A DNA stretch of 64,000 bases from Arenicellales bacterium (GTDB lineage: Bacteria; Pseudomonadota; Gammaproteobacteria; Arenicellales; JAJDZL01): the NCBI GenBank assembly GCA_965262855.1, contig OZ253563.1:546328-610327 (forward strand). Reading direction: 5' to 3'. Within the stretch, counting starts at the first letter, position 1, and each line of letters begins with the position of its first letter. This document shows, in pieces, positions 1-13,874 of the stretch. Below the pieces are notes generated by a model, which was not told the origin of the DNA, did not search any database, and saw only the letters and a program-made list of their open reading frames with translations. Position numbers and translations under genes: made by a program.

Positions 1-756
1 ATCTTGTCTGACGATTTCAAGCAGGGTGTCGAGGGCGAAAACTGCGTCTCCTCGAACCAGGTTGATCGCGGCGAGTTGATAGTGAGCATGCCAGTTATTT
101 TCGTCCTGCTGGATTTGGTCGCGCAATTCTTCTTCAGATGGGCTGTTTTCTGCAAGTTCGATGAACTCCAACGCTGCACTGATGGAATTGTACTCAGGAT
201 TATTGTGAGTTTCCTTTACCTTGGCGAGCGTCTCTTTAGAGTTTTGAAATTCCTGCTGGCGCAGGTAGAGATTTGCAAGACGAAGAAGAGCAGCGTCTGA
301 ATCATCGCTTTTTAACTGCTCAATGGCTTCGGAAACTCGACCTTGACTGACCAGATTTTGTATTGGATCTTCAGGCGGTTGATTTTGCTGAGCAACATGT
401 TTCGACAAAAATTGCTGAATGTTATTTTTAGGTTGTGCTCCCTGAAAGCCGTCTACAACTGCGCCATCTTTAATCAAAAAAACGGTGGGTACGCTACGCA
501 CAGAAAACTGCATCGCAAGCTCCTGTTGTTCGTCTATGTTGATTTTTGCCAGCTGAATTTCACCTGCATATTCGTTTGCAAGTTCTTCAAGGATTGGGGT
601 AAGGGTTTTGCACGGATCGCACCAGGGTGCCCAAAAATCTACGACAACCGGAACAGTTCTCGATTTTTCGACAACTTGCTCAAAGAAATTTTCGGCATCA
701 ACATCGACCATGTTCGAGGTTGGAATAGGAATTTCGTCACTGATCAACTGAACCAT
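1..756 (-). CDS. thioredoxin-domain plus TPR-like co-chaperone (YbbN/CnoX-like); 3' end lies outside the window
   Basis: The minus-strand frame is open from the ATG (complement of 754-756) to the window edge, which is why it is missing from the ORF track. My translation is MVQLISDEIPIPTSNMVDVDAENFFEQVVEKSRTVPVVVDFWAPWCDPCKTLTPILEELANEY... It shows a thioredoxin fold with a WCxPC site followed by a helical C-terminal part. The plus-strand ORFs 4-300 and 343-774 are its antisense shadows. Confidence 0.8.
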   Translation of the reverse strand, partial: MVQLISDEIPIPTSNMVDVDAENFFEQVVEKSRTVPVVVDFWAPWCDPCKTLTPILEELANEYAGEIQLAKINIDEQQELAMQFSVRSVPTVFLIKDGAVVDGFQGAQPKNNIQQFLSKHVAQQNQPPEDPIQNLVSQGRVSEAIEQLKSDDSDAALLRLANLYLRQQEFQNSKETLAKVKETHNNPEYNSISAALEFIELAENSPSEEELRDQIQQDENNWHAHYQLAAINLVRGDAVFALDTLLEIVRQD

Positions 757-789
757 GAACTTACCTCTGTTTGACAACAAAAATTCAAA

Positions 790-864
790 TGGCGCTCCCT
801 AGGGGGATCGAACCCCTGTTCCCGGCTTGAGAGGCCGATGTCCTGACCGCTAGACGAAGGGAGC
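790..864 (-). tRNA. tRNA-Glu, anticodon CUC
   Basis: The reverse complement is GCTCCCT TC GTCT AGCGGTCA GGAC A TCGGC CTCTCAA GCCGG GAAC AGGGG TTCGATC CCCCT AGGGAGC G CCA. It has a 7-bp acceptor stem, a 4-bp D stem, a 5-bp anticodon stem with loop C-T-CTC-A-A, a TTCGATC T-loop and an encoded CCA. Total length is 75 nt. Confidence 0.9.
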
Positions 865-943
865 AGACGTGCAACTAACATAAATAATAAATGGTATCAC
901 AAATAAAGATTTCAAATTTCTGCTCCCAACAGGTCGTTCATTG

Positions 944-2209
944 ATGGCGCTACCGAGGGTTATTGCGAATGCCGAGCATGGGATTTCACGTTCAAGATTA
1001 AGTTCTGGAGCGGTGGATGTCACCCGAATTCTGAAGTCTGCCGGTTTTTCAGCAGAACTTGTAGGAGGTTGTGTTCGAGATTTGCTGCTCGGCAAGAGTC
1101 CTAAAGACTTTGACGTCGCAACCAGTGCTACGCCGGAGCAGATTCAAGGGCTGTTTCGCAGATGTCGTGTATTTGGCCGTCGCTTTCGGCTCGCCGAGGT
1201 AAGAATCGGTGCTGAACTCATTCAGGTCGCTACTTACCGGTCAGCACCGGGTACCTCTAGACGTTCCAGCAGGGCGCGAAACATATCAGCGACCGGAAAA
1301 ATCTTGAAAGATAATAATTTTGGAAATATCGAAAAGGACGCATTCCGGAGAGATTTGACGATTAATGCTTTGTATCTGCATCCTTCAGATATGAAAATTT
1401 ACGACTACACGGATGGATTCCGAGATATGCAGGAGGGCGTCATCCGAGTGATCGGCAACGCAGAGCATCGATATCGAGAAGACCCGGTACGGATGCTCCG
1501 GGCAATCCGATTCGCAGCTTCGCTCCAATTCAAGCTAGAAGCGAATACAGTGCAACCTGTCGTTGAGCTTGCCAGCCTGCTCCGTGATGTATCGCATTCA
1601 CGTCTTGGTGATGAGTTCATAAAATTATTCTTTAACGGGCATGCGCACTCAACCTTTCAACTGCTCAACGAGCATGCTGTTTTTCCAATACTCTTTCCTG
1701 CCTATTCGGATAGCCGCGGGATTGGGGCGGATGACCGTGCAGTTCATTGGCTTAATCTGCTTTTTCAAGATACGGATCAGCGTGTACAAAGTGCGGAACC
1801 TTTGAGTATGGCATATACGATGGCAGCAATACTGTGGATGCCCTATTTACGTGCGATTCATGAGCGACGCCGGCGTTCTAGAAATAAGAATCACACGATA
1901 CACCCCATTGCAGAGAATATGCTGACTCAACAGAATCAAAGAATATTTATTTCGCGGATGCATGGGTATCGAATTCAGGATATCTGGCAGCTTCAGAAAA
2001 GGCTTGAAAATGAAAGTCCAGGGCGTAGTAGAGTAGTGCACGACAGAAGTTTTCGAGCTGCACTTCGTCTTTTTGAACTGCGGTCAAATTTCGGCGAGGT
2101 GGATGCGTCGCTGTGTAGGAAGTGGGTTGAACTTCGCACTGAAATGATGGAAAAAAGTCAAAAGAAAAAACGTCGGCCGCCACGAAAGAGAAGGACTCGC
2201 GGAGTATGA
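944..2209 (+). CDS. pcnB: poly(A) polymerase I
   Basis: The motif GGCVRDLLLGKSPKDFDVAT marks the nucleotidyltransferase core, and the C-terminal tail is basic. The gene is followed by folK, as in E. coli. The ATG at 944 sits directly after the TTG at 941 used in the ORF track. Confidence 0.9.
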   Translation: MALPRVIANAEHGISRSRLSSGAVDVTRILKSAGFSAELVGGCVRDLLLGKSPKDFDVATSATPEQIQGLFRRCRVFGRRFRLAEVRIGAELIQVATYRSAPGTSRRSSRARNISATGKILKDNNFGNIEKDAFRRDLTINALYLHPSDMKIYDYTDGFRDMQEGVIRVIGNAEHRYREDPVRMLRAIRFAASLQFKLEANTVQPVVELASLLRDVSHSRLGDEFIKLFFNGHAHSTFQLLNEHAVFPILFPAYSDSRGIGADDRAVHWLNLLFQDTDQRVQSAEPLSMAYTMAAILWMPYLRAIHERRRRSRNKNHTIHPIAENMLTQQNQRIFISRMHGYRIQDIWQLQKRLENESPGRSRVVHDRSFRAALRLFELRSNFGEVDASLCRKWVELRTEMMEKSQKKKRRPPRKRRTRGV

Positions 2210-2709
2210 TTGGACGAGTCGAAGCCATCGCTTATATCGGGGTTGGAAGTAATCTTGATGATCCGCAGCATCAAGTCATTCAAGCCATGAATGCGGTTGA
2301 TCAATCCAGACAATGCACGGTAATTGCAAGATCGTCGCTCTACGGGTCGGAGCCGGTGGGATTTTCTGATCAACCTGATTTCGTAAATGCAGTTTGCAAA
2401 ATTTCAACAACTCTGGCACCGCTGCCGTTACTCAAGCACCTGCTGAAACTCGAAAAAGCAATTGGTAGAATACGGGTCAGTCTGCCGAATCGGCCGCGCA
2501 GAATTGATCTTGATCTTCTGCTGTATGGGAGCGAACAGCTAGAGACTGCGGAGCTGATATTGCCGCATCCTCGAATACGCGAACGTCGATTCGTGTTGGA
2601 GCCACTGGTTGAAATCAGCCGGGATTTGGAGATTCCGGGAAAAGGAAATGCGCTTGATTTTCTTGAGATGTGTATGAATCAGCAAGTGAATAAACTGAAT
2701 TGTGAGTAA
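2206..2709 (+). CDS. folK: 2-amino-4-hydroxy-6-hydroxymethyldihydropteridine pyrophosphokinase
   Basis: The 167-aa product reads AYIGVGSNLDDP...RPRRIDLDLLLYG...LPHPRIRERRFVLEPL, which is typical of HPPK. It overlaps the pcnB stop by 4 nt. Confidence 0.9.
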   Translation: MIGRVEAIAYIGVGSNLDDPQHQVIQAMNAVDQSRQCTVIARSSLYGSEPVGFSDQPDFVNAVCKISTTLAPLPLLKHLLKLEKAIGRIRVSLPNRPRRIDLDLLLYGSEQLETAELILPHPRIRERRFVLEPLVEISRDLEIPGKGNALDFLEMCMNQQVNKLNCE

Positions 2710-2768
2710 CATATTGCGATACATGGATTGCTTGAAAAAAAGCAACGAGAAATAGGAGAAAACTGCTT

Positions 2769-3998
2769 ATGAACATACCTGGACAACCTAGCCGCGTGCT
2801 TTCCGGCATGCGGCCGACGGGTCGTCTTCATCTCGGACACTATCACGGTGTCATCAAACCATGGATCGAACTGCAGCACCTCCACGAGTGTTACTATTTT
2901 GTCGCTGACTGGCATGCACTGACTACCGAGTATGAAGTTGGATCTGCATTTTCCATGAAGGACAATGTCTGGGATATGATTATCGACTGGCTCGCTGCAG
3001 GCGTTGACCCGGAGCTTGCTACGATATTTATTCAGTCTCGGGTTCCCGAACATGCCGAACTGTTTCTTTTATTGTCCATGGTGAGTCCACTCGGCTGGCT
3101 TGAGCGCGTGCCCAGTTTTAAGGACCAGCAAGAAAAGCTGAAAGACAGGGAACTGTCGACACTCGGATTTCTGGGCTATCCTGTTTTGCAGAGTGCGGAT
3201 ATTCTGATATACCGAGCATCGAAGGTTCCGGTTGGAGCGGATCAGGTGCCTCACATCGAAGTGACTCGAGAAATTGCTAGACGGTTCAATGTCATATTTG
3301 GCCGAGAGCCTGATTTTCGAGAAAAAGCAGAGTTGTCGATTAAAAAGCTTGGTAAAAAGCTGGGGAAACAATATCGCGAGTTTCAACAAGCCTATACCGT
3401 ACGCGGTAACAGAGAAGCGTTGGAAAAAGCTCAACTGCTATTGGAACAAACTCACAACTTGTCTCGAGGAGATCGTGAACGACTCATGGGATATCTGGAA
3501 GGAACCGGCAGGCAGATTCTTACCGAACCTGAGGCGATGGTACCCGAAAATGTTGCATCCAAAGTTCCCGGCTTGGATGGACAGAAAATGTCCAAATCTT
3601 ATGGCAACGCGATTTATCTTCGTGACGACCCCGATCGAATTGAAAAATCTATACGATCCATGCCGACTGACCCAGCACGAATTCGTAGAAATGATCCTGG
3701 CGATCCGAAAAAGTGTCCTGTATTTGATCTGCATGTAATCTATTCAAGTGAAGAAGTACGAAAATGGGTTTGTGAAGGCTGTACGACAGCTGCAATTGGT
3801 TGTCTGGAATGCAAAGCCCCTTTGATCGATGAAGTGTTGAAAGAACAGCGTGATCACGCGGAACGTGCGAAACCGTATATTGAGGATCCGGATTTTCTCA
3901 AGAGAGTCATTGCAGACGGCTGTGAGCGTGCAGGCGCCGTTGCAGAAGCAACCATGAGCGACGTTCGAAGGTATGTCGGAACCAGTGGATATCGATGA
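2769..3998 (+). CDS. trpS: tryptophanyl-tRNA synthetase, long form with a C-terminal Cys cluster
   Basis: It has the class I HIGH-type motif GRLHLGHYHG and KMSKS at residues 273-277. An insertion of about 80 aa precedes KMSKS. Cysteines lie at residues 316, 335, 338, 345 and 348. Confidence 0.9.
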   Translation: MNIPGQPSRVLSGMRPTGRLHLGHYHGVIKPWIELQHLHECYYFVADWHALTTEYEVGSAFSMKDNVWDMIIDWLAAGVDPELATIFIQSRVPEHAELFLLLSMVSPLGWLERVPSFKDQQEKLKDRELSTLGFLGYPVLQSADILIYRASKVPVGADQVPHIEVTREIARRFNVIFGREPDFREKAELSIKKLGKKLGKQYREFQQAYTVRGNREALEKAQLLLEQTHNLSRGDRERLMGYLEGTGRQILTEPEAMVPENVASKVPGLDGQKMSKSYGNAIYLRDDPDRIEKSIRSMPTDPARIRRNDPGDPKKCPVFDLHVIYSSEEVRKWVCEGCTTAAIGCLECKAPLIDEVLKEQRDHAERAKPYIEDPDFLKRVIADGCERAGAVAEATMSDVRRYVGTSGYR

Positions 3999-4791
3999 TT
4001 TGGATGAAAATGTAGTTAACATAAAGCAGACTTCCTCTGCCAGAAAAGACAGGGAAATCCCGAGTGATCTCTATATCCCGGCCGATGCGCTTGAGGTAAT
4101 CACTCAAGATTTTGAGGGGCCGCTGGATCTTCTGTTGTACTTGATACGAAAAAACAGTTTCGACGTGTTGAACATCCCTGTAGCTGAAGTTGCGGAACAG
4201 TACGCAAAATACATTGATTTGATGCAGAAAATTCAGCTGGAACTGGCAGGCGAGTATCTGGCGATGGCGGCTACCCTGGCTCAGATCAAGTCCAGGCTTT
4301 TGCTGCCTCCGAGACAGAGAGAAACAGAGGATGAAGAAGAAATTGATCCGCGCCTCGAACTAGCATTGCGGCTGCAGGAATATGAAAAGATCAGGGCGAT
4401 CGCAGAACTGCTGGATAAACGACCGAGAATTGGCCGAGAAATCTTCAGCGTTCATGCACATGGAACACCGGTTCAGACCACAGCAGAATTTGAAAAGGTT
4501 GAACTAGCGTATTTAATCGAAGCATTTCAGGGTGTTCTGCAACTGGCTGAGAGCAGTTCATCTATCGTCATGCATCGGGAAACCATGTCGGTGAAGGATA
4601 AAGTTGAATCAATTGTTGAAGTATTAAGGGTTGCCGGACAACTTCCATTTGGAGATTTATTTGACCGTCGAGAAGGAAAGGCCGGAATTGTCGTTGCATT
4701 TCTGGCGATATTGGAATTGATCAATTCAAAACGAGCCTACGCCATACAGGCTACAGCCGATTCCCCCATCCATATTCATTTGAACGAATAG
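3973..4791 (+). CDS. scpA: segregation and condensation protein A
   Basis: It carries the FEGPLDLLLYLIRKNSFDVLNIPVAEVAEQY motif and is directly followed by scpB. Confidence 0.85.
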   Translation: MSEPVDIDDLDENVVNIKQTSSARKDREIPSDLYIPADALEVITQDFEGPLDLLLYLIRKNSFDVLNIPVAEVAEQYAKYIDLMQKIQLELAGEYLAMAATLAQIKSRLLLPPRQRETEDEEEIDPRLELALRLQEYEKIRAIAELLDKRPRIGREIFSVHAHGTPVQTTAEFEKVELAYLIEAFQGVLQLAESSSSIVMHRETMSVKDKVESIVEVLRVAGQLPFGDLFDRREGKAGIVVAFLAILELINSKRAYAIQATADSPIHIHLNE

Positions 4792-5361
4792 ATGACCGTT
4801 AATTATCGCAAACTCAAAAATATTGTCGAAGCTGCGGTACTGACTTCGGAAATACCAGTATCCGTGGAGCAAATTCGCAGTCTTTTTTCCGATGAAGATA
4901 AACTGGATACGCTTGATGTGGAGCGAGTGCTGCTGGAGATGGAGAGAGATTGCGACAATCGAGGTGTGATGCTCAAAAGAATCGACAATGGTTACCGGTA
5001 TCAGTCGCGTGAAGAGTTTGCGCCGTGGCTGCGCAAACTATCCGAAATTCGTCCGCGTCGATACTCCAGAGCACTGATGGAGACTTTATCGATCATTGCG
5101 TTCCGACAGCCGGTAACACGCGGAGACATTGAAAATATTCGAGGTGTATCGGTATCCACAGAAATCATGCGAACTCTGTTGACCAATGAGTGGATTGAGC
5201 AGGCGGGTTATAAACAGGTGCCAGGCCGTCCAGCACTGTTTCGTACGACACGAAAATTTCTTGAGTATTTCAACCTTGAATCTCTTGACGAACTGCCAGC
5301 GCTGGATTTGCTTGAAAGACAAGCTGCTCGCGAAGTCGAATCGAGTGCGAGTGAGAGTTGA
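4792..5361 (+). CDS. scpB: segregation and condensation protein B
   Basis: It carries the SRALMETLSIIAFRQPVTRGDIENIRGV motif. Its start abuts the scpA stop. Confidence 0.85.
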   Translation: MTVNYRKLKNIVEAAVLTSEIPVSVEQIRSLFSDEDKLDTLDVERVLLEMERDCDNRGVMLKRIDNGYRYQSREEFAPWLRKLSEIRPRRYSRALMETLSIIAFRQPVTRGDIENIRGVSVSTEIMRTLLTNEWIEQAGYKQVPGRPALFRTTRKFLEYFNLESLDELPALDLLERQAAREVESSASES

Positions 5362-5405
5362 GTGCACTCCTGATCAACACGTTCAGTTCTGGTTGATGTA
5401 AAAGC

Positions 5406-6152
5406 GTGAGCGAACGAGTTCAGAAGTTTCTGGCTCGGTCCGGATACGGATCCCGCCGCCAGATTGAAAAGTGGTTGGTCGAAGGTAGAATTCGCTCAGA
5501 TGAAGGGATTTATTCGCTTGGCGATAAAGTAGTCTTGAATGATATTGTGATTCTCGATGGCCAGCGGATTCGAGTTACAAGCTCAAATTCACCGACTCGA
5601 GTCATAGCCTATCACAAGAAAGAAGGAGAAATCTGCACTCACTCCGACCCTGCCAATCGTCCGACGATTCTGGAATCAATACCTTCGATAACTGAGGGTC
5701 GCTGGGCTACGGTCGGACGATTAGACCTCAACACGACTGGATTGATACTAATTTCAAATGATGGTGATCTCGTTCATGGACTAATGCATCCAAGCAGTCA
5801 GATTGAGCGCGAGTATTTGTGTCGTGTACTGGGCGAGACAAGTTCAAAAACGTTACAGAAATTGCGTAACGGAGTTCAATCAAACGGCGAATTTCTTCGA
5901 TTCGATCATATTGAACTCGTGTCAGGCAAGGGCGCTAATCAGTGGTATCGCATCCGGTTGACTCGCGGCAAGAATCGAGAAATTCGCCGTGCTTGGGAAG
6001 CAGTTGGCCACCGCGTCAGTCGACTAAAGCGAATCCGTTACGGCCCCATACATTTGAGGAAGAATCTGAAACAGGGAGAGTGGGCTGAACTGGATCAGAA
6101 TCAGATCGCGATACTCAAAGCGATTGCCAACCCGAATCCCTTGACTTCGTAG
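5406..6152 (+). CDS. rluB: 23S rRNA pseudouridine synthase B; the last codons are supplied by the IS insertion
   Basis: The N-terminus is an S4 domain (RVQKFLARSGYGSRRQIEKWL) and the catalytic motif is GRLDLNTTGLILISNDGDL. It starts with GTG. The C-terminus reads ...ANPNPLTS*, whereas the duplicated downstream copy reads ...ANPNPQL*. Confidence 0.85.
   Translation: MSERVQKFLARSGYGSRRQIEKWLVEGRIRSDEGIYSLGDKVVLNDIVILDGQRIRVTSSNSPTRVIAYHKKEGEICTHSDPANRPTILESIPSITEGRWATVGRLDLNTTGLILISNDGDLVHGLMHPSSQIEREYLCRVLGETSSKTLQKLRNGVQSNGEFLRFDHIELVSGKGANQWYRIRLTRGKNREIRRAWEAVGHRVSRLKRIRYGPIHLRKNLKQGEWAELDQNQIAILKAIANPNPLTS
5969..6139. repeat. 171-bp direct repeat, copy 1 (rluB 3' end)
   Basis: Base-by-base comparison shows it is identical to 8131-8301. 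It abuts the left end of the IS-like insert. Confidence 0.95.
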
Positions 6153-8130
6153 AAAACTCGATTTTTACTCGATTTTCCGGATTTCATTTTTCAATATTAT
6201 CATCATCTTGCAAGCGTCCATCCTGAAAAACAGCGATGTAGTGCCCTCATCAAAATAATACTTGCATATCAATCCGGACTGATGTATAACTTCATCCATG
6301 TTTGTAAGAAAGAAATTCGATGCCGCCCGAAACCGATACCGGGTGCAGATCGTGCAGAGCTTCCGCGACGGCAAGAAGGTGCGCCAGAAGATTATCCGCC
6401 ATGTCGGCACCGCGCCCGGCGGCGCCCAGCTGACAAAGCTGATGGAGCTCGGCGAGTTCATCAAGGAAGATCTCCGGCAGCAGTCCAATCCGCAGCAGGA
6501 GCTGTTCACGCCCAAGCAATACGCGGATCTTCTGAGCCAGTGCCGACGCAACCGCAAAGCGGCGCACCTCGGCGTCGACCTTGGACAGTGCCGGGAACAA
6601 AACCGCCTGAACATCGGCGTGCGCGAAGCATTCGGCCGGCTTTACTCGAGCATGGGCTGGGACCGCCTGCTCGGTTCCCGCAAAGCCAGCGCCAATCGCA
6701 TCATCAAGGAACTGGTGCTGGCGCGCATCGCCCAGCCGCGGTCGAAACGCGGCACCGTCATGGAGCTGGCAAGAGACGGCGGCGTGACGCTGAATCTGGA
6801 CTGGGTCTATCAGTCCATGGACTATCTTGACCCGCGGGTGATTGACAGCATACGCCGAAACGCGTCGGCCCGGGCTGAGGAACTTTTCACGCAGCCGATC
6901 GATGTCCTGTTCTATGACACCACGACACTTTATTTTCAAAGCGACCGGGAAGACTACGGCCAAAACAAAGATCCTCTTCGCTTCAAGGGCTACAGCAAGG
7001 ACGGCAAGCCGCATCGAACCCAGGTGGTGCTGGCATTGCTGGTGACCCGCGGCGGGATTCCGCTGGATTATGAGCTTTATCCGGGCAACACCTACGAGGG
7101 CGACACGCTGTGCCGGGCGCTCGATGGCATCACCGAACGATACGATGTGAGCCGGGTGACCGTGGTGGCCGATGCCGGGCTGTTCAGCCACAGCAATCTT
7201 GAATGGCTGCGCGAGCGCAACCTGCCCTACATTGTGGGGTTTCGCGCCAAGAATGCGACGCGCAAGCTCAAGGAGCAGATTCTCGATGCCGACGGCTATG
7301 AGGGCTATATGTTCGACCAGGATGGTGAGGCTCAGTGCAACTGCAAGATCATCGCCCGCGGCGAGGAGCGAATCATCGCGACTTATTCAAAGAAGCGGGC
7401 GAGAAAAGACCGCCACAGCCGAGAGCGGGCGCTGGAGAAGCTGCTCAAGCGCCTGAAGCGTAGCGCAAAGCCGCTCAGCTTGGTGTCAAAAGGACATGCG
7501 CGGTTTCTCAACGTTCCATCTGACGGCGAGGCCACGGTCAATGAGGAAAAAGTGGCACAGGCCGCGCGCTGGGACGGCATCCACACCATCATCGCCTGGG
7601 GCAACGATCAGCTCAGCACCACCGAGCTGCTGCACCAATACCGTCAGCTGTGGCACATCGAACGCGGATTTCGCACCAACAAGCACGATCTGAGGATCCG
7701 ACCGATCTTTCATTGGACAAGCCGGCGCATCCGAGCCCATATCGCCATCTGTTTCATGGCGTATTGCTGTGTGCAGCACATGAGCCACCGGCTCCAGGCG
7801 CTCGGACATCCGATGAGTCCGGAATCGATGCGGCGCGAACTGAACCACCTGCAGGTCAGCATTCTGGAAAACCACCAAGACGACCGCAGATTCGCGATAC
7901 CGAGCAACGCGTCGGCGCAAGCCAGACGGATCTATCGCTGTGTGAACCTCAAGTGGAGCACCGTACCGTTTGAGATCAAGCCCATGTGACAACCGACCTG
8001 ATCCTTGCCAAATCGCTGCTGACACTGTGGCGCAATCTGACCGGTTTTGGTACCAACCTCAAAATGTAGTGCCCACATTTGAACCTCGATTCAATTAAAA
8101 CAACTATTTACAGCGAAAGTTCTATTAACT
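6140..8130 (+). mobile_element. IS1634-family-like insertion sequence (1991 bp between the long direct repeats)
   Basis: A single 563-aa transposase ORF sits in sequence bounded exactly by the 171-bp duplication. The core is GC-rich and the ends are AT-rich. I could not find terminal inverted repeats by eye, so the exact termini are inferred only from the repeat boundaries. Confidence 0.7.
6298..7989 (+). CDS. DDE transposase, IS1634-family-like
   Basis: The 563-aa N-terminus, MFVRKKFDAARNRYRVQIVQSFRDGKKVRQKIIRHVGTA, matches the pattern I recall for IS1634-family transposases. The C-terminal part (...YRQLWHIERGFRTNKHDLRIRPIFHW...) is typical of the IS4/IS1634 DDE region. Family assignment is from memory, not from a search. 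Confidence 0.8.
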   Translation: MFVRKKFDAARNRYRVQIVQSFRDGKKVRQKIIRHVGTAPGGAQLTKLMELGEFIKEDLRQQSNPQQELFTPKQYADLLSQCRRNRKAAHLGVDLGQCREQNRLNIGVREAFGRLYSSMGWDRLLGSRKASANRIIKELVLARIAQPRSKRGTVMELARDGGVTLNLDWVYQSMDYLDPRVIDSIRRNASARAEELFTQPIDVLFYDTTTLYFQSDREDYGQNKDPLRFKGYSKDGKPHRTQVVLALLVTRGGIPLDYELYPGNTYEGDTLCRALDGITERYDVSRVTVVADAGLFSHSNLEWLRERNLPYIVGFRAKNATRKLKEQILDADGYEGYMFDQDGEAQCNCKIIARGEERIIATYSKKRARKDRHSRERALEKLLKRLKRSAKPLSLVSKGHARFLNVPSDGEATVNEEKVAQAARWDGIHTIIAWGNDQLSTTELLHQYRQLWHIERGFRTNKHDLRIRPIFHWTSRRIRAHIAICFMAYCCVQHMSHRLQALGHPMSPESMRRELNHLQVSILENHQDDRRFAIPSNASAQARRIYRCVNLKWSTVPFEIKPM

Positions 8131-8301
8131 CAAGAATCGAGAAATTCGCCGTGCTTGGGAAGCAGTTGGCCACCGCGTCAGTCGACTAAAGCGAATCCGT
8201 TACGGCCCCATACATTTGAGGAAGAATCTGAAACAGGGAGAGTGGGCTGAACTGGATCAGAATCAGATCGCGATACTCAAAGCGATTGCCAACCCGAATC
8301 C
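8131..8301. repeat. 171-bp direct repeat, copy 2
   Basis: It is identical to 5969-6139 and abuts the right end of the IS-like insert. Confidence 0.95.
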
Positions 8302-8311
8302 GCAGTTGTGA
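8131..8311 (+). pseudogene. orphan 3' fragment of rluB (duplicated target sequence plus the native stop)
   Basis: It is in frame with the rluB C-terminus and ends ...AAC CCG AAT CCG CAG TTG TGA. It has no start codon or upstream coding sequence. Confidence 0.8.
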
Positions 8312-8326
8312 TTGTAGGCACCTTGT

Positions 8327-8986
8327 TTACATCCACAGTTGCGCTGGAATTTCAGCTACAGCGTCGACGAGATAATCAGCGCCCCAGGATTTTGGGTCGT
8401 CATGCGGGGGAATATAACCATAAGTGACTCCAATGGTGTGCAGCCCGGCATCACGACCAGCTTCAATATCTCGTATTGAGTCCCCTATGAATACCGATGA
8501 GTTTGGTGATATTCCTGCCAATTTACATGCATAAATTACCGGTAGCGGATTTGGTTTTCTTTGCGGTAACGTGTCTCCACCTACGATACAGGCGACGCTG
8601 TTTCTCAAACCTAGATGTTCAACGATTTGAACAGTCAGATATTCCGGTTTATTCGTTACGATTCCCCACTGTATGCCGGTATCATTCATTTTTTCCAAGA
8701 TTGCGTCAATTCCGGGAAACAACACAGTTTCCGAATAGAGATTTTGTTCATATAAATCCAGAAACTCTTCTCTGAGTTCCTGGAATCCATTTTCTTCTGG
8801 AGCGCAGTTGAAGCCTAGCCGAATCAGGGCAGGTGTGCCGTTTGAAATGTGTGGGCGCAAGTGTTCAAAAGGAAGAGGCTCTTTTGACTTGCTCGCTCTC
8901 AATAAATTCAGCGCATTGACCATGTCACGCGCCGTGTCAGCCAGCGTTCCGTCAAAATCGAAAAGAACCAGCGGATACTTGTTCAA
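8327..8986 (-). CDS. HAD-family phosphoglycolate phosphatase-like hydrolase
   Basis: It has the HAD motif I LVLFDFDGTLADT. I place the start at the TTG whose last bases overlap the ubiG stop (TTGA). The 332-aa ORF-track version runs into ubiG and is too long. Confidence 0.75.
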   Translation of the reverse strand: MNKYPLVLFDFDGTLADTARDMVNALNLLRASKSKEPLPFEHLRPHISNGTPALIRLGFNCAPEENGFQELREEFLDLYEQNLYSETVLFPGIDAILEKMNDTGIQWGIVTNKPEYLTVQIVEHLGLRNSVACIVGGDTLPQRKPNPLPVIYACKLAGISPNSSVFIGDSIRDIEAGRDAGLHTIGVTYGYIPPHDDPKSWGADYLVDAVAEIPAQLWM

Positions 8987-9684
8987 GTTCGTTCGCAATG
9001 CGCGAGGTAATTGATTTCGATGCCCGGTCCGAGTCGAAATGAGCGAGAAACGGGATTGTAGTGTAATCCGGTGATATTTTGCATTCTGATTCCGGCACTT
9101 CGGCACCATCGATTGAGTTCGGAAGGTCGAATGAAATTCTTGTGCTGATGGGTTCCGCGCGGCAGAAGGTTCAGAACATATTCGGCGCCGACGATTCCAA
9201 GTGCCCAACTTTTTGGCGTACGATTCAGTGTGGAAAAGAAGATACTTCCGCCTGGCTTGATGACAGCACCGCAGGCATTGATCGCTGAAATCGGGTCGGG
9301 GACATGTTCGAGCATCTCCATGCATGTCACAATATCGAATTTCTCCTCAATTTGGTCTGCATAGTTTTCTATTGTTGTACACACATATTCGACATTTAAC
9401 TGACTTTCGTGGAGATGAAGTTTAGCAATCTGCAGTGTTTCTTCACTGATATCAAGTCCGGTAACCAAGGCGCCTTCGCGGGCCAGCGATTCTGATAGAA
9501 TGCCACCACCGCAGCCGACATCCAGAATTGTTTTTCCTTCAATTGGCGAATGATTGCGAATAAATTCCAGCCTGAGAGGATTTAGCATGTGAAGCGGGCG
9601 AAATTTGCCCGAGGGATCCCACCATTGCTCGGCAATGTTTGAAAATTTACGAACTTCTGCTGTGCTTACGTTCAGTGCGTTCAT
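8983..9684 (-). CDS. ubiG: ubiquinone biosynthesis O-methyltransferase
   Basis: It has the SAM-binding motif ILDVGCGGGILSESLA and FDIVTCMEMLEHVPDP. I chose the ATG at 9684 (MNALNVSTAEVRKF...), which lies just downstream of the mtaD stop at 9692-9694. The order mtaD-ubiG-gph matches Pseudomonas. Confidence 0.85.
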   Translation of the reverse strand: MNALNVSTAEVRKFSNIAEQWWDPSGKFRPLHMLNPLRLEFIRNHSPIEGKTILDVGCGGGILSESLAREGALVTGLDISEETLQIAKLHLHESQLNVEYVCTTIENYADQIEEKFDIVTCMEMLEHVPDPISAINACGAVIKPGGSIFFSTLNRTPKSWALGIVGAEYVLNLLPRGTHQHKNFIRPSELNRWCRSAGIRMQNITGLHYNPVSRSFRLGPGIEINYLAHCERT

Positions 9685-9691
9685 GATTGCA

Positions 9692-11020
9692 TTAAAAGGA
9701 GCTAAGTGTGTTCGAGATTTTAGCGTGCCATCGGTTTGCAATTTCAAGGCACTGTGCCTCATCAATGCATGTCAATACCTGATTATCAAGAACCTGTTTC
9801 CCCCCAATCCAGACGTCTGTGACTTGATCTCTGGAAGCGGCATGGACAATTTGAGATACAGGGTCATAAATCGGTGAACAGTATATGCTGCTCAAGTCAA
9901 TCGCGGTGATGTCGGCGAGTTTTCCAGGCTCAAGAGAACCGGTTGACAGGTCAAGTCCCAGGCTTTTGGCGCCATTGATTGTAGACATGCGGAGTGCTTC
10001 GTGAACAGATACGTTTGAAGCGTCTGCAGACTTTCCTTTTGCAAGCAACGCAGCAAATCGCATTTCTTCCAACATGTTCAAACTATTGTTACTGGCAGCG
10101 CCATCTGTTCCGATAGCAACATTGACATTGTGTTTTAGCAGGTCGCTGACCGGACTGATTCCACAGGCAAGTTTTAGATTTGATTTTGGACAGTGGGCGA
10201 TGTTACTGTTGGATTCCGCAAGAAGACTAATTTCTTCGTCAAGCAGTTGGGTAACGTGAACTGCAATTAATCGAGAATTCAGCATTCCCAGTTTTTGCAG
10301 GCGTTCTATGGGACGTACTCCGTGCATTTTGATGGAATCTTCAATCTCCTGCGCGGTTTCGTGGACATGAATATGTACTCCGAGGCGCTGTTCTGCAGCT
10401 AGGCCGACTATTTTTTCAAGGGTGTCGTCAGAGACTGTGTAGGGTGCATGTGGTGCAAACATGGTTGTAACGAGTTCTGAAGCTCTGAATCGATCATGCA
10501 GTTCCATGCCTTTGCTGAGATATTCCTCTGCCGAATTTGCCCATTTAGTCGGAAATTCAAGCGCGATCATGCCAAGTGTGATTCTCATATGTGTTTGTTC
10601 TGCGACCTCACCGACAACTTCTGGAAACAGGTACATGTCGTTCAAGCAAGTGGTGCCGCTACGAATCGACTCGGCGATCGCTAGTGTGGTGCCATCTCGC
10701 ACAAAATCCGCGTCTACCCATTGTCCCTCTAGCGGCCAGATGCGCTGCTGAAGCCAAGTGTCCAGCGAGACGTCTTCAGCGGCCCCGCGAAATAGCGTCA
10801 TCGCTGCATGTGTATGTGCGTTTATAAACCCAGGGATAACTGCGTGATTGGACAAACAAACATGGTTGGCGGCGCTAAATATTTTGTTGGCTTCCACGGT
10901 AGGCAGAATTCGTTGAATTTTGTCGGCGACTATGACAATGCTGTGATGGTCAAGAGTGCTGTTTGAAGCGTCAACGGGGATTACCCATCGTGCGTCAATC
11001 ACTGTATCTGCAAATTCCAT
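9692..11020 (-). CDS. mtaD: amidohydrolase-family 5'-methylthioadenosine/S-adenosylhomocysteine deaminase
   Basis: The 442-aa product has the metal-binding motif GFINAHTHAAMTLFRG and later ...HVHETAQE... and ...IGTDGAASNN..., which is the TRZ/ATZ deaminase pattern. Confidence 0.8.
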   Translation of the reverse strand: MEFADTVIDARWVIPVDASNSTLDHHSIVIVADKIQRILPTVEANKIFSAANHVCLSNHAVIPGFINAHTHAAMTLFRGAAEDVSLDTWLQQRIWPLEGQWVDADFVRDGTTLAIAESIRSGTTCLNDMYLFPEVVGEVAEQTHMRITLGMIALEFPTKWANSAEEYLSKGMELHDRFRASELVTTMFAPHAPYTVSDDTLEKIVGLAAEQRLGVHIHVHETAQEIEDSIKMHGVRPIERLQKLGMLNSRLIAVHVTQLLDEEISLLAESNSNIAHCPKSNLKLACGISPVSDLLKHNVNVAIGTDGAASNNSLNMLEEMRFAALLAKGKSADASNVSVHEALRMSTINGAKSLGLDLSTGSLEPGKLADITAIDLSSIYCSPIYDPVSQIVHAASRDQVTDVWIGGKQVLDNQVLTCIDEAQCLEIANRWHAKISNTLSSF

Positions 11021-11264
11021 GCGACAAAAGTATAATTCAAATGACCGGCTGGAGCGCAGCCATTCCGATCTCCGTTAGTGGCGAAAATAAGCCATTCAAA
11101 ACATTGTTTTTGATCTCCGTCAGTTCGGCAATTTCACCAGTCTGATCGTACTGAAATATGTTAAAATCATTGCCAGTTATGACTGTATTCTCTCACCCGC
11201 TTTCAAGCGCTAATTTCGCCGCTTGCATACCGCAAAATTCGTTTATTCATAAAAGTTCAAACTA

Positions 11265-13874
11265 GTGCCTGTTTTCGCCAAAAGAACATATTCCGCTGAC
11301 CTCGAAAAGGAGATGCGGCAGTCCTATCTGGATTACGCCATGAGCGTAATTGTAGGGCGCGCTTTACCGGATATTCGAGACGGTTTGAAGCCGGTTCATC
11401 GCCGAATTCTGTATGCGATGAAGGATCTCGGAAACGACTGGAACAAACCTTATAAGAAATCCGCTCGAATTACCGGTGACGTTATCGGTAAATATCACCC
11501 GCATGGAGATACCGCAATCTACGATGCAATTGTGCGAATGGCACAGGATTTTTCCATGCGCTACCCCTTGGTAGACGGCCAGGGAAATTTCGGTTCAGTC
11601 GATGGAGATGCACCAGCAGCCATGCGTTATACAGAAGTGCGTCTTTCCCGTATTGCACATGAACTGCTAGTTGATATTGATAAGGAGACGGTCGACTTTG
11701 GCCCGAATTACGATGACACGGAAGAACAGCCTCTTGTGCTTCCGACCCGATTGCCGAATTTGCTGCTGAATGGCTCTGAAGGCATTGCAGTCGGGATGGC
11801 GACGAAAATTCCGCCTCATAATCTAACCGAAACCATAAATGCATGTCTTGCTTTGATAGAGGACAACAGCCTGACCGTCAAACAGTTGATGGAACACATA
11901 CCGGGTCCGGACTTTCCGACTGCAGGAATAATTAACGGGCAGTCCGGAATAATTGAAGCTTACAACACCGGGCGCGGTTCCATACGCCTCCGTGGTAAGG
12001 TTGAATTTGAAGCCATCGGGAATTCAAACAAACAGGCCATCATCATCACTGAGCTTCCTTATCAGGTGCTCAAAGCACGATTGATTCAACAGATAGCGGA
12101 ACTCGTGAAAAGCGGTGTTCTGGATGGAATCTCCATGGTTCGGGATGAATCCGACAAGTCGGGAATGCGAGTTGTAATCGAATTGAAAGCCGGTACGAAT
12201 CCGGAAGTTGTAGAGAACAATCTTTACAGCAGTACCCGACTTGAGTCTAGCTATGGAATCAATCTCGTTGCACTGGCGAACAATCAGCCTAGACTATTTG
12301 ATTTAAAACGTTTATTGAACGGCTTTATCCGGCATCGCCGTGAAGTCGTTACGCGTAAACTGGAATTTGAGCTAAGAAAGGCGGTAGCGCGCGCTCACAT
12401 TTTGGAAGGCCAAGCAGTAGCGCTATCCAATTTGGACGAAATGATTGCAGTCATTCGCGCTGCAAGGGGTGGTGCGGAGGCAAAAGAAAAGCTGATGGAA
12501 AGATTCTGGAATTCGGATGTCGTTTCGCAGTTGCTCAAAGAAAATGAAATTGACAGAGCTTCAGATTTGTCAGCTCCGAAGCGGTATGGCGTGTTCGAAG
12601 AAGGTTATCGATTGTCCGAGAGTCAGGCCGTTGCAATCCTGCAGATGCGTCTGCAGAATTTAACCGGACTGGAGCAGGAAAAAGTGTTTGAAGAGTTTAA
12701 GGAGATTCTTGCTCAAATCGACAAGACACGACGAATTTTGCGCTCCCCGGTATTGTTGCTGAAACAAATATCGGATGAATTAAGAGAATTGCGCGAACTT
12801 TATGGCAGGAACGATAGGCGCCGAACAAGAATCGTGGAAAACGCACTCGACTTGAGCAATGAAGATTTGATTGTGCGAGAAGATGTTGTTGTTACAATTT
12901 CACACTCAGGGTATGCAAAACAGCAGCCACTGTCTGAATATCGTTCGCAGATTCGGGGAGGAAAGGGCAAAACCGCTACAACCCATAAAACCGATGATTT
13001 CGTCAGCAGAATGTTTGTTGCCAATACGCACAATACACTGCTGTGCTTTACCAATCTCGGCAAAGTGTACTGGACCAAAATTTATCGGCTGGAACGTGCA
13101 GGTCGTACCGCCCGAGGCCGGCCACTCGTCAATGTTTTGCCTGCGTTGGCAGGAAATGAAAATGTAACCGCAGTGTTGCCGCTGGAAAAACACAACGACG
13201 GCAAATATATATTTATGGCTACACGTCGCGGTACCGTTAAAAAGTGTAATTTGGAGAGATTTTCGAAAATCAGATCGAACGGATTGCGCGCAATCAAGTT
13301 GAAAGAAGGAGACGAACTCGTCAACGTAGGAATTACCAGTGGAAAAGCCGATATTCTACTGGTCAGTAGCGCGGGGCGCATGATCCGGTTCGACGAATCC
13401 AGTATCCGGGCAATGGGACGGACAGCTGCAGGCGTGCGAGGACTGAAACTGGAACAGAATCAGCGGCTGATTTCCATGATTTGCGTTGAGCCGAGTGATG
13501 AAGACCGAACTGTGCTGCTGGTAAGTTCAGATGGCTGCGGCAAGCGTACAAACCTGAGCGAATTTCCAAAGAAAAAAAGGGCAGGCAAAGGTGTGGTAGT
13601 ACTACCAGCCAAAAAACGCAGTGAAACGAAAATGATTGATGCATTGCTGGTGAATGACAGCGATCAGATAATTCTGATCACTGATGGTGGAACGCTGATC
13701 AGAACCGAAGTCTGCAAAATTGCAAAATATTCGAGAATAGCTGCCGGGGTTCGACTGATTAACCTGAATGAGGAACAGTCACTTGTCGGTGTCGCAGCAA
13801 TCACTGACAATAATACTGACGAAGACGACGAAATATCGGGTGATAGCAACACCGTTTCGCAAACTGACGAGTAG
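11265..13874 (+). CDS. gyrA: DNA gyrase subunit A
   Basis: The 869-aa product reads [33 protein letters not shown]...[14 protein letters not shown]. It starts with GTG. Confidence 0.95.

Follow-up and report, generated by a model that had tools for sequence, protein, structure and literature searches.

Introduction

Insertion sequences (ISs) that leave long and variable duplications of their target have reportedly been known since 1998-99, from IS1549 and IS1634. IS1634 of Mycoplasma mycoides subsp. mycoides SC is said to be the founding member of the IS1634 family and to have been described by Vilei, Nicolet and Frey in 1999. Here, an IS1634-family element was analyzed in a 64,000-nucleotide stretch of an Arenicellales bacterium genome (assembly GCA_965262855.1, contig OZ253563.1, forward-strand positions 546,328 to 610,327), which is called the window throughout. 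Inserted into the 3' end of rluB, the element is enclosed by two perfect copies of a 167-171-bp target segment. Arenicellales is an order within Gammaproteobacteria, and the window element is a new gammaproteobacterial case of the rare transposition behavior already described for IS1634 and IS1549.

According to the family review of De Palmenaer et al. (2008, PMC2266710), IS1634-family elements are 1500-2000 bp long and end in the consensus C-----YT. Their transposases carry a degenerate YREK signature, mostly lacking the arginine, and the second D is separated from the E by an unusually long spacer (N3-C1). The family norm is an AT-rich target duplication of 5-6 bp, and IS1634 and IS1549 together were the sole members reported to form long variable direct repeats, of 8-514 bp (PMC2266710). 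For IS1549 of Mycobacterium smegmatis, the formation of long direct repeats on insertion is attributed to Plikaytis, Crawford and Shinnick (1998), as cited in PMC2266710. A 6-bp duplication has been seen experimentally for ISGka5 of Geobacillus kaustophilus (PMC8024623). The long-repeat mechanism was "so far" without a model in 2008 (PMC2266710), and no later mechanistic model for long variable duplications was found in the literature searched. A report of long duplications in the IS1634 family beyond mycoplasmas and mycobacteria was likewise not found, within a limited literature coverage that is not proof of absence.

Direct repeat and empty site at the rluB locus

An earlier note, made from the letters of the window alone, had described a base-for-base repeat of 171 nt around a 1991-bp insert with a 563-aa (amino acid) transposase. 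Repeat search, string comparison and blastn all returned positions 5969-6139 and 8131-8301 as 171 nt of 100% identity, and the bases outside the copies were not shared (G versus T on the left, C versus G on the right). A perfect 171-mer cannot occur by chance in 64 kb. The copies are separated by 1991 nt with one long open reading frame, which is the 563-aa gene at 6298-7989 on the plus strand. The value of 1991 nt holds as the spacing between the copies and not as the length of the IS, which is 1995 bp.

This length was obtained by setting the element ends where the similarity to four other copies (L001, L002, L014, and L015) stops. The conserved element occupies 6140-8134 on the plus strand in the form CTTGAC...GTCAAG, starting with CTTGACTTCG at 6140 and ending with AAGTCAAG at 8134. 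The tetranucleotide CAAG belongs to both the IS terminus (8131-8134) and the target (5969-5972), and the boundary is ambiguous over these 4 nt. With CAAG counted as the terminus of the IS, 167 nt remain as the duplication proper, with the left copy at 5973-6139 and the right copy at 8135-8301. The overlap is probably a coincidence. The insert has a G+C content of 56.7% against 47% for the whole window and therefore looks foreign. Neither the insert nor its protein has another copy in the 64-kb window.

The uninterrupted locus was found by an exact look-up of the ScpB protein of the window, which retrieved eight contigs from independent ENA metagenome assemblies (L006-L013). Exact-protein look-ups with the window transposase and UbiG gave no match. 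All eight contigs carried a 247-aa RluB, then 15 bp, then the convergent phosphatase gene, and lacked the transposase. Window positions 1-6139 correspond to L006 positions 1210-7348 and window positions 8131-13523 to L006 positions 7178-12570, both at 100% identity, and the seven remaining contigs were 99.7-99.98% identical to the window flanks. The segment at 7178-7348 of L006 is single there and double in the window, and one copy of it was present in each of the eight contigs. The L006 gene call at 7374-8033 maps to the phosphatase at 8327-8986 of the window.

These comparisons show that the IS and the duplication occur together and that near-identical strains differ at this locus. In the one case examined, the window insertion, the single-copy empty site indicates that the repeat was created at insertion. 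The earlier note had predicted an empty site with a single rluB end about 15 bp from the gph stop, and this was what the eight contigs contained, with the tail NPNPQL* and gph 15 bp away. A duplication without the IS at this locus, which the same note had raised as counter-evidence, was not seen in these contigs.

The effect on the host gene is small. The interrupted rluB, for a 23S rRNA pseudouridine synthase with Pfam S4 and PseudoU_synth_2 domains, now extends over 5406-6152 on the plus strand and encodes 248 aa. Its product matched the NCBIfam RluB model best, at 258 bits, which is below the equivalog cutoff of 290, and it passed TIGR00093. The final three codons and the stop (L-T-S-*) come from the left end of the IS, and because the left joint sits three codons short of the rluB stop, RluB merely swaps QL for LTS. 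The change of tail that had been deduced from the window alone was thus visible as ...IANPNPQL* (247 aa) in the empty-site allele and ...IANPNPLTS* (248 aa) in the window. The 3' fragment at 8131-8311 (plus strand), earlier described as dead, has no start codon and ends in the original rluB stop, TGA at 8309-8311. Behind it, the gph/mupP-like HAD phosphatase gene (8327-8986, minus strand; Pfam HAD_2 and the NCBIfam phosphoglycolate phosphatase and MupP models) is convergent with rluB and uninterrupted. Gph would keep 167 bp of native downstream sequence, and the right copy would be a dead rluB fragment.

The flanks shared with L006 are 100% identical over 11.5 kb and show that the difference between filled and empty alleles is very recent. 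The recent event that had been read from the 100% identity of the repeats stands on these flanks, since gene conversion could also have kept the repeats identical. The empty alleles may be ancestral, or they may be revertants, because recombination between perfect repeats would restore the ancestral sequence exactly. Repeats of 167 bp should be long enough for RecA-dependent recombination and thereby for a precise loss of the element.

Transposase and terminal sequences

The transposase gene (6298-7989, plus strand) encodes a 563-aa protein of the DDE type with D207, D292, E455 and K462. Against the NCBIfam profile NF033559 (transpos_IS1634, 'IS1634 family transposase'), the protein scored 348.7 bits over residues 29-552, where the cutoff is 100 bits. 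The runner-up IS family was IS1380 with 31 bits, and the Pfam match was DDE_Tnp_1. The IS1634-like character suspected earlier from the N-terminus is confirmed by these scores, and a transposase of a different family, the other possibility then considered, is far behind.

In an alignment of 13 sequences, comprising the transposase and 12 homologues of 42-81% identity, D207, D292, E455 and K462 were invariant or nearly so. The YREK region reads Y448-RQ-L451-WHI-E455-RGFRTN-K462 (Y448-x2-L-x3-E-x6-K), in which L replaces R, and the spacer from D292 to E455 is 163 aa. The length of 1995 bp and the ends CTTGACTT... and ...AAGTCAAG also agree with the family description. The left terminal inverted repeat at 6140-6160 (plus strand) is CTTGACTTCGTAGAAAACTCG, which fits C-----YT. 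The right one at 8114-8134 (minus strand) has the reverse complement CTTGAGTTAATAGAACTTTCG, and its last 4 nt, CAAG, are also target. The terminal inverted repeats are imperfect; between CTTGACTTCGTAGAAAACTCG and CTTGA(C/G)TTAATAGAACTTTCG, 15 of 21 positions pair (16 of 21 in L001).

The AT-rich 5-6-bp duplication of typical family members was not found. Instead, the repeats are 167-171 bp in the window and 22-1,356 bp in the relatives described below. IS1634 membership is left standing by this deviation because IS1634 and IS1549 themselves are the known exception. The element is intact and probably active.

Repeat lengths in related elements

To collect related copies, species-representative genomes were scanned, and a protein search and look-ups of contigs were added. 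The genome scan found transposases of 96-97% identity in two chromosome-level Arenicellales metagenome-assembled genomes (MAGs), L001 and L002, with one copy each. Further relatives were a 98% copy in L014 and an 81% copy in L015. For every retrieved copy, the repeat length was taken from the longest exact match between the sequences directly adjoining the conserved IS ends.

Among window-type elements (96-98% aa identity, L015 81%), the IS was 1995 bp long (1999 bp in L014 and 1981 bp in L015), and the repeats were 167 bp in the window, 109 bp in L001, 685 bp in L002, 102 bp in L014, and 256 bp in L015. The P0010-type (51% identity, 1980 bp) was present in ten copies in one assembly, with repeats of 33, 60, 89, 225, 239, 387, 397, 664, 676, and 858 bp. 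Repeats of the P0013-type (52%, 1978 bp) were 22, 25, 29, 31, 93, and 258 bp, and those of the P0014-type (52%, 1961 bp) were 85, 90, 91, 131, 142, and 889 bp. The P0080-type (43%, 2117 bp) had repeats of 54 and 1,356 bp.

Taken together, the five IS species (43-98% aa identity) provided 29 independent insertions, whose repeats ranged from 22 to 1,356 bp around a median of 131 bp; not one was shorter than 22 bp. In the 27 of these 29 that were measured directly, a perfect repeat abutted an element of constant length; the other two lengths (L016 and L024) were reconstructed across later nested insertions. The same element is thus found with very different repeat lengths, as in IS1634 and IS1549. 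Long variable repeats at other copies had been anticipated in the earlier note, and short duplications there had been named as evidence to the contrary. The four closest relatives had perfect abutting repeats of 109, 685, 102, and 256 bp, and the four more distant IS species had the full range of 22-1,356 bp. Judged from these copies, long target duplication characterizes the lineage.

The two insertions reconstructed across nested elements also contained ordinary duplications. In L016, a 1,216-bp IS of another family (6176-7391) is nested in the long repeat and has its own duplication of 10 bp. In L024, a 1,354-bp ISL3 element (2014-3367) is nested in the same way, with a duplication of about 9 bp. 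Because these nested elements show about 9-10 bp, ordinary duplications are recoverable in the same assemblies. The assembly that holds the P0010-type copies (ERZ25069296, L016-L025) was crowded with IS200/IS605, ISL3, IS66, IS1595, and IS4-like genes, which suggests that this genome is undergoing IS expansion.

The median repeat length was 313 bp for the P0010-type (L016-L025) and 30 bp for the P0013-type (L027-L033), a difference with p=0.016 in a Mann-Whitney test on small samples. The length distributions may therefore be element-specific, and either the transposase or the host might determine the spacing.

The longest repeat was observed in L043, where a perfect direct repeat of 1,356 bp (2484-3839 and 5957-7312) surrounds the 43%-identical IS relative. 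Because this repeat holds complete ribH (DMRL synthase) and nusB genes, the transposition produced a whole-gene duplication. Diverged structures were seen in two Arenicellales MAGs. In L005, a decayed relative is flanked by a diverged repeat of 173 bp at 87% identity (3645-3816 and 6592-6764). L003 contains a partial IS with a 547-bp repeat at 88% (3536-4046 and 5232-5769), a putative structure that overlaps the transposase match. Both suggest old insertions with persisting duplications, L003 more tentatively.

The 96-98% identical transposases of L001, L002 and L014 are located at unrelated sites, in two Arenicellales species-representative genomes and a metagenome contig. The G+C excess of about 10 points, the unrelated sites and the single copy per genome point to recent horizontal spread over vertical inheritance. 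Plasmid relatives in Mycobacterium and Rhodococcus were all below 60% aa identity, and the best plasmid matches overall were at about 26-28%. At five distant IS1634-family loci on alphaproteobacterial plasmids (26-28% identity), the long repeat was absent; a clean 5-6-bp duplication was also unseen there, so that these loci are a weak control.

Base composition and spacing of the target joints

With the IS termini fixed by conservation, 27 insertions, or 54 half-sites, were scored. The target base right after the right IS end was A in 19 of 27, and the target base just before the left IS end was T in 22 of 27. Viewed from the element outward, 41 of the 54 half-sites have A, for which the background is 0.24. 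An earlier subset of 42 half-sites had given A at 31 (p=1e-11), with 16/21 and 15/21 at the two joints. Both repeat copies carry these bases, which are therefore target sequence and no part of the element.

Microhomology between the IS ends and the target was at chance level, with 17 of 54 junctions at k>=1 against 13.5 expected (p=0.17). Overlaps of k>=4 occurred twice, in the window and in L044, against 0.21 expected, which is marginal (p=0.02). Junction microhomology was dropped as a mechanistic clue, since its overall frequency was at chance.

Repeat lengths showed no helical phasing of 10-11 bp (Rayleigh p>0.29). No other periodicity was detected in a scan of 5-120 bp, in which the best period was no better than jittered nulls (p=0.36). 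The lengths were roughly log-uniform over two orders of magnitude. With the same preference at both boundaries, base-precise termini and no excess microhomology, we interpret each boundary as a strand-transfer site of the transposase. These features of the joints point to two strand-transfer sites that the transposase would choose separately.

Subterminal motif

A short motif was found inside both ends of the window element, as ATGTAGTGCCCTCAT at 6236-6250 (plus strand), 98 nt inside the left end, and as ATGTAGTGCCCACAT at 8064-8078, 70 nt from the right end; both copies are on one strand. Its common form (A)TGTAGTGCCC, more generally (A)TGT(A/T)GTGCCC, was present in each of the five IS species in the same orientation, at a distance of 77-99 nt from the left end and of about 67-70 nt from the right. 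Matching positions were found in L001, L015, L016, L028, L037, and L043. The variant TGTTGTGCCC was located near 4026-4041 and 5838-5853 in L042, and distant plasmid elements of the IS1634 family (26-28% identity) have the related AAAATGTAGTGG close to the right end. Transposase-binding sites are normally inverted, and a same-strand arrangement is unusual. The motif may make the two IS ends functionally asymmetric. Searches in and around the IS found neither a known RNA family of Rfam nor a sigma-70 consensus promoter.

Discussion

In the IS4 family, including IS10/Tn10 and IS50/Tn5, target duplication arises by staggered strand transfer followed by gap repair, and the transpososome fixes the stagger at about 9 bp. 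The window element resembles these elements in its related DDE_Tnp_1 domain and its terminal inverted repeats. Unlike theirs, the stagger in the window lineage varies over two orders of magnitude. Since the stagger is so variable, we infer that the two target attacks are geometrically uncoupled.

The window locus is very probably the product of a recent transposition of the 1995-bp IS1634-family element into the rluB 3' end by the following mechanism. Each 3'-OH end of the element would be joined by the DDE transposase to a different strand of the target, and the two positions would be chosen separately. Each attack site would adjoin an A (a T on the other strand), with no fixed stagger of 5-9 bp. 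In the window, the two sites would lie 167 bp apart, after 5972 and after 6139 of the uninterrupted sequence. The interval between the nicks would become single-stranded on each side of the element, and host repair or strand-displacement synthesis would fill it, so that the whole interval would be duplicated. Only the 5'-stagger polarity would yield a viable simple insertion, which would explain why duplications alone are observed. By the chemistry of strand transfer, the opposite polarity would give no simple insertion.

The same element and the same event could also have met a replicating target. The two IS ends could integrate at a fork, or one end could go into each sister duplex, or a template switch could supply the second joint after one end had integrated, and replication would then duplicate the interval. 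An interval of up to 1,356 bp is hard to melt without a helicase or a polymerase, the family had no published mechanistic model (PMC2266710), and the two 4-nt overlaps of IS end and target, in the window and L044, are more than expected. However, the overall frequency of microhomology is at chance. The same A/T preference at both joints and the precise termini fit two strand transfers and not a polymerase switch, although this preference leaves a targeting of sister duplexes possible. An origin through replication is unlikely, though worth keeping in mind. Unequal crossing-over between IS copies is a generally known route to duplications, and in M. mycoides recombination between IS1634 copies causes large duplications (PMC3053259). 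Accordingly, the repeat might have formed in two steps, in which insertions with short duplications at nearby sites, on sister chromosomes or by re-insertion close by, came first and unequal homologous recombination of the resulting IS copies came second. The element would have had to insert twice, independently, within 167 bp, whereas it is single in the window and in each of the two chromosome-level relatives. The same sequence of events would have to recur in 29 of the 30 insertions examined, always with exact abutment, and neither a reciprocal deletion allele nor a short duplication is visible at any joint. The two-step origin is thus strongly disfavored, and its probability is very small.

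An artefact of assembly deserves equally little weight, although some circumstances would allow it. The source is probably a MAG, public samples also contain IS-free alleles whose flanks are identical, and the evidence for the assembly of the window locus itself is indirect. Mis-joined reads of a mixed population with and without the IS could then have produced the IS and the second 171-nt copy. However, the same architecture was found at 29 sites in several independent assemblies, including chromosome-level ones and differing in their contig-naming styles. The junctions are base-precise at conserved IS termini, other IS families have normal duplications in the same contigs, and the behavior has already been reported for two family members. 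Furthermore, the 2.3-kb structure is shorter than typical long reads.

Several points weigh against transposition with two separately chosen strand-transfer sites as the explanation of the window locus. One is L042, where a 44%-identical relative (3952-5909) keeps the intact termini CTTGACTTCAGACAT...GGAAGTCAAG but lacks both a direct repeat around it, over 3.8 kb, and any obvious duplication of 5-6 bp. Its site may have been rearranged, the event may have been of the deletion type, or the repeat may be very long. The left joint of the window has C and not the favored T. The window holds a sole copy of the element, so that variability inside the source genome itself is unseen. Transposition by the window element is read from sequence, and mis-assembly of its locus is excluded only by the indirect arguments above. 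Independent site choice and strand-displacement gap filling are likewise deduced, and the data would also fit integration into forks or sister duplexes.

Compared with the described systems, the window element is closest to IS1634. Both belong to the same family by hidden Markov model, are in a similar size class, fit the terminus C-----YT and have long repeats that vary from copy to copy. This comparison was made by family profile and description. IS1634 has a mollicute host, whereas the window element is in an Arenicellales-like gammaproteobacterium. About 60 copies of IS1634 are present in PG1, against one copy per genome examined for the window-type. The repeats of the window lineage reach 1,356 bp and were never below 22 bp in 29 cases, against 8-514 bp for IS1634 and IS1549. 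IS1549, compared by description only, shares the family and the long repeats and differs in its actinobacterial host. Ordinary members of the ISGka5 type share the DDE residues, the degenerate YREK and the long N3-C1 spacer, and the A/T preference at the joints echoes their AT-rich duplications. Unlike their fixed 5-6 bp, the window element has 167-171 bp.

In the broader clade, the trait appears constant and extends up to 1.36 kb. We tentatively propose, at somewhat less than an even chance, an undescribed IS1634-family clade of marine and metagenomic bacteria with transposases of 43-98% identity and ends C(C/T)TGA(C/G)TTC. It would always use two uncoupled strand transfers with A-preferring joints, 22 bp to at least 1.36 kb apart, and would carry TGT(A/T)GTGCCC on the same strand about 70-100 nt inside both ends. 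If this is true, the clade would be a natural system for solving the origin of long variable target duplications, with insertions reversible by homologous recombination. The exact empty site and the 28 further insertions form a base-resolution data set that constrains the mechanism through the lengths, the A/T joints, and the lack of phasing and microhomology. The clade is useful as material for an unsolved mechanism, and a specialist would not be astonished by it.

IS finders that expect duplications of 2-14 bp will misplace the ends of such elements, and the duplicated gene fragments will be annotated as pseudogenes or spurious paralogues. For the host, wide duplications soften the impact of insertion, since both neighbors retain native sequence, and whole genes can be duplicated. 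Exact reversion by recombination should be possible.

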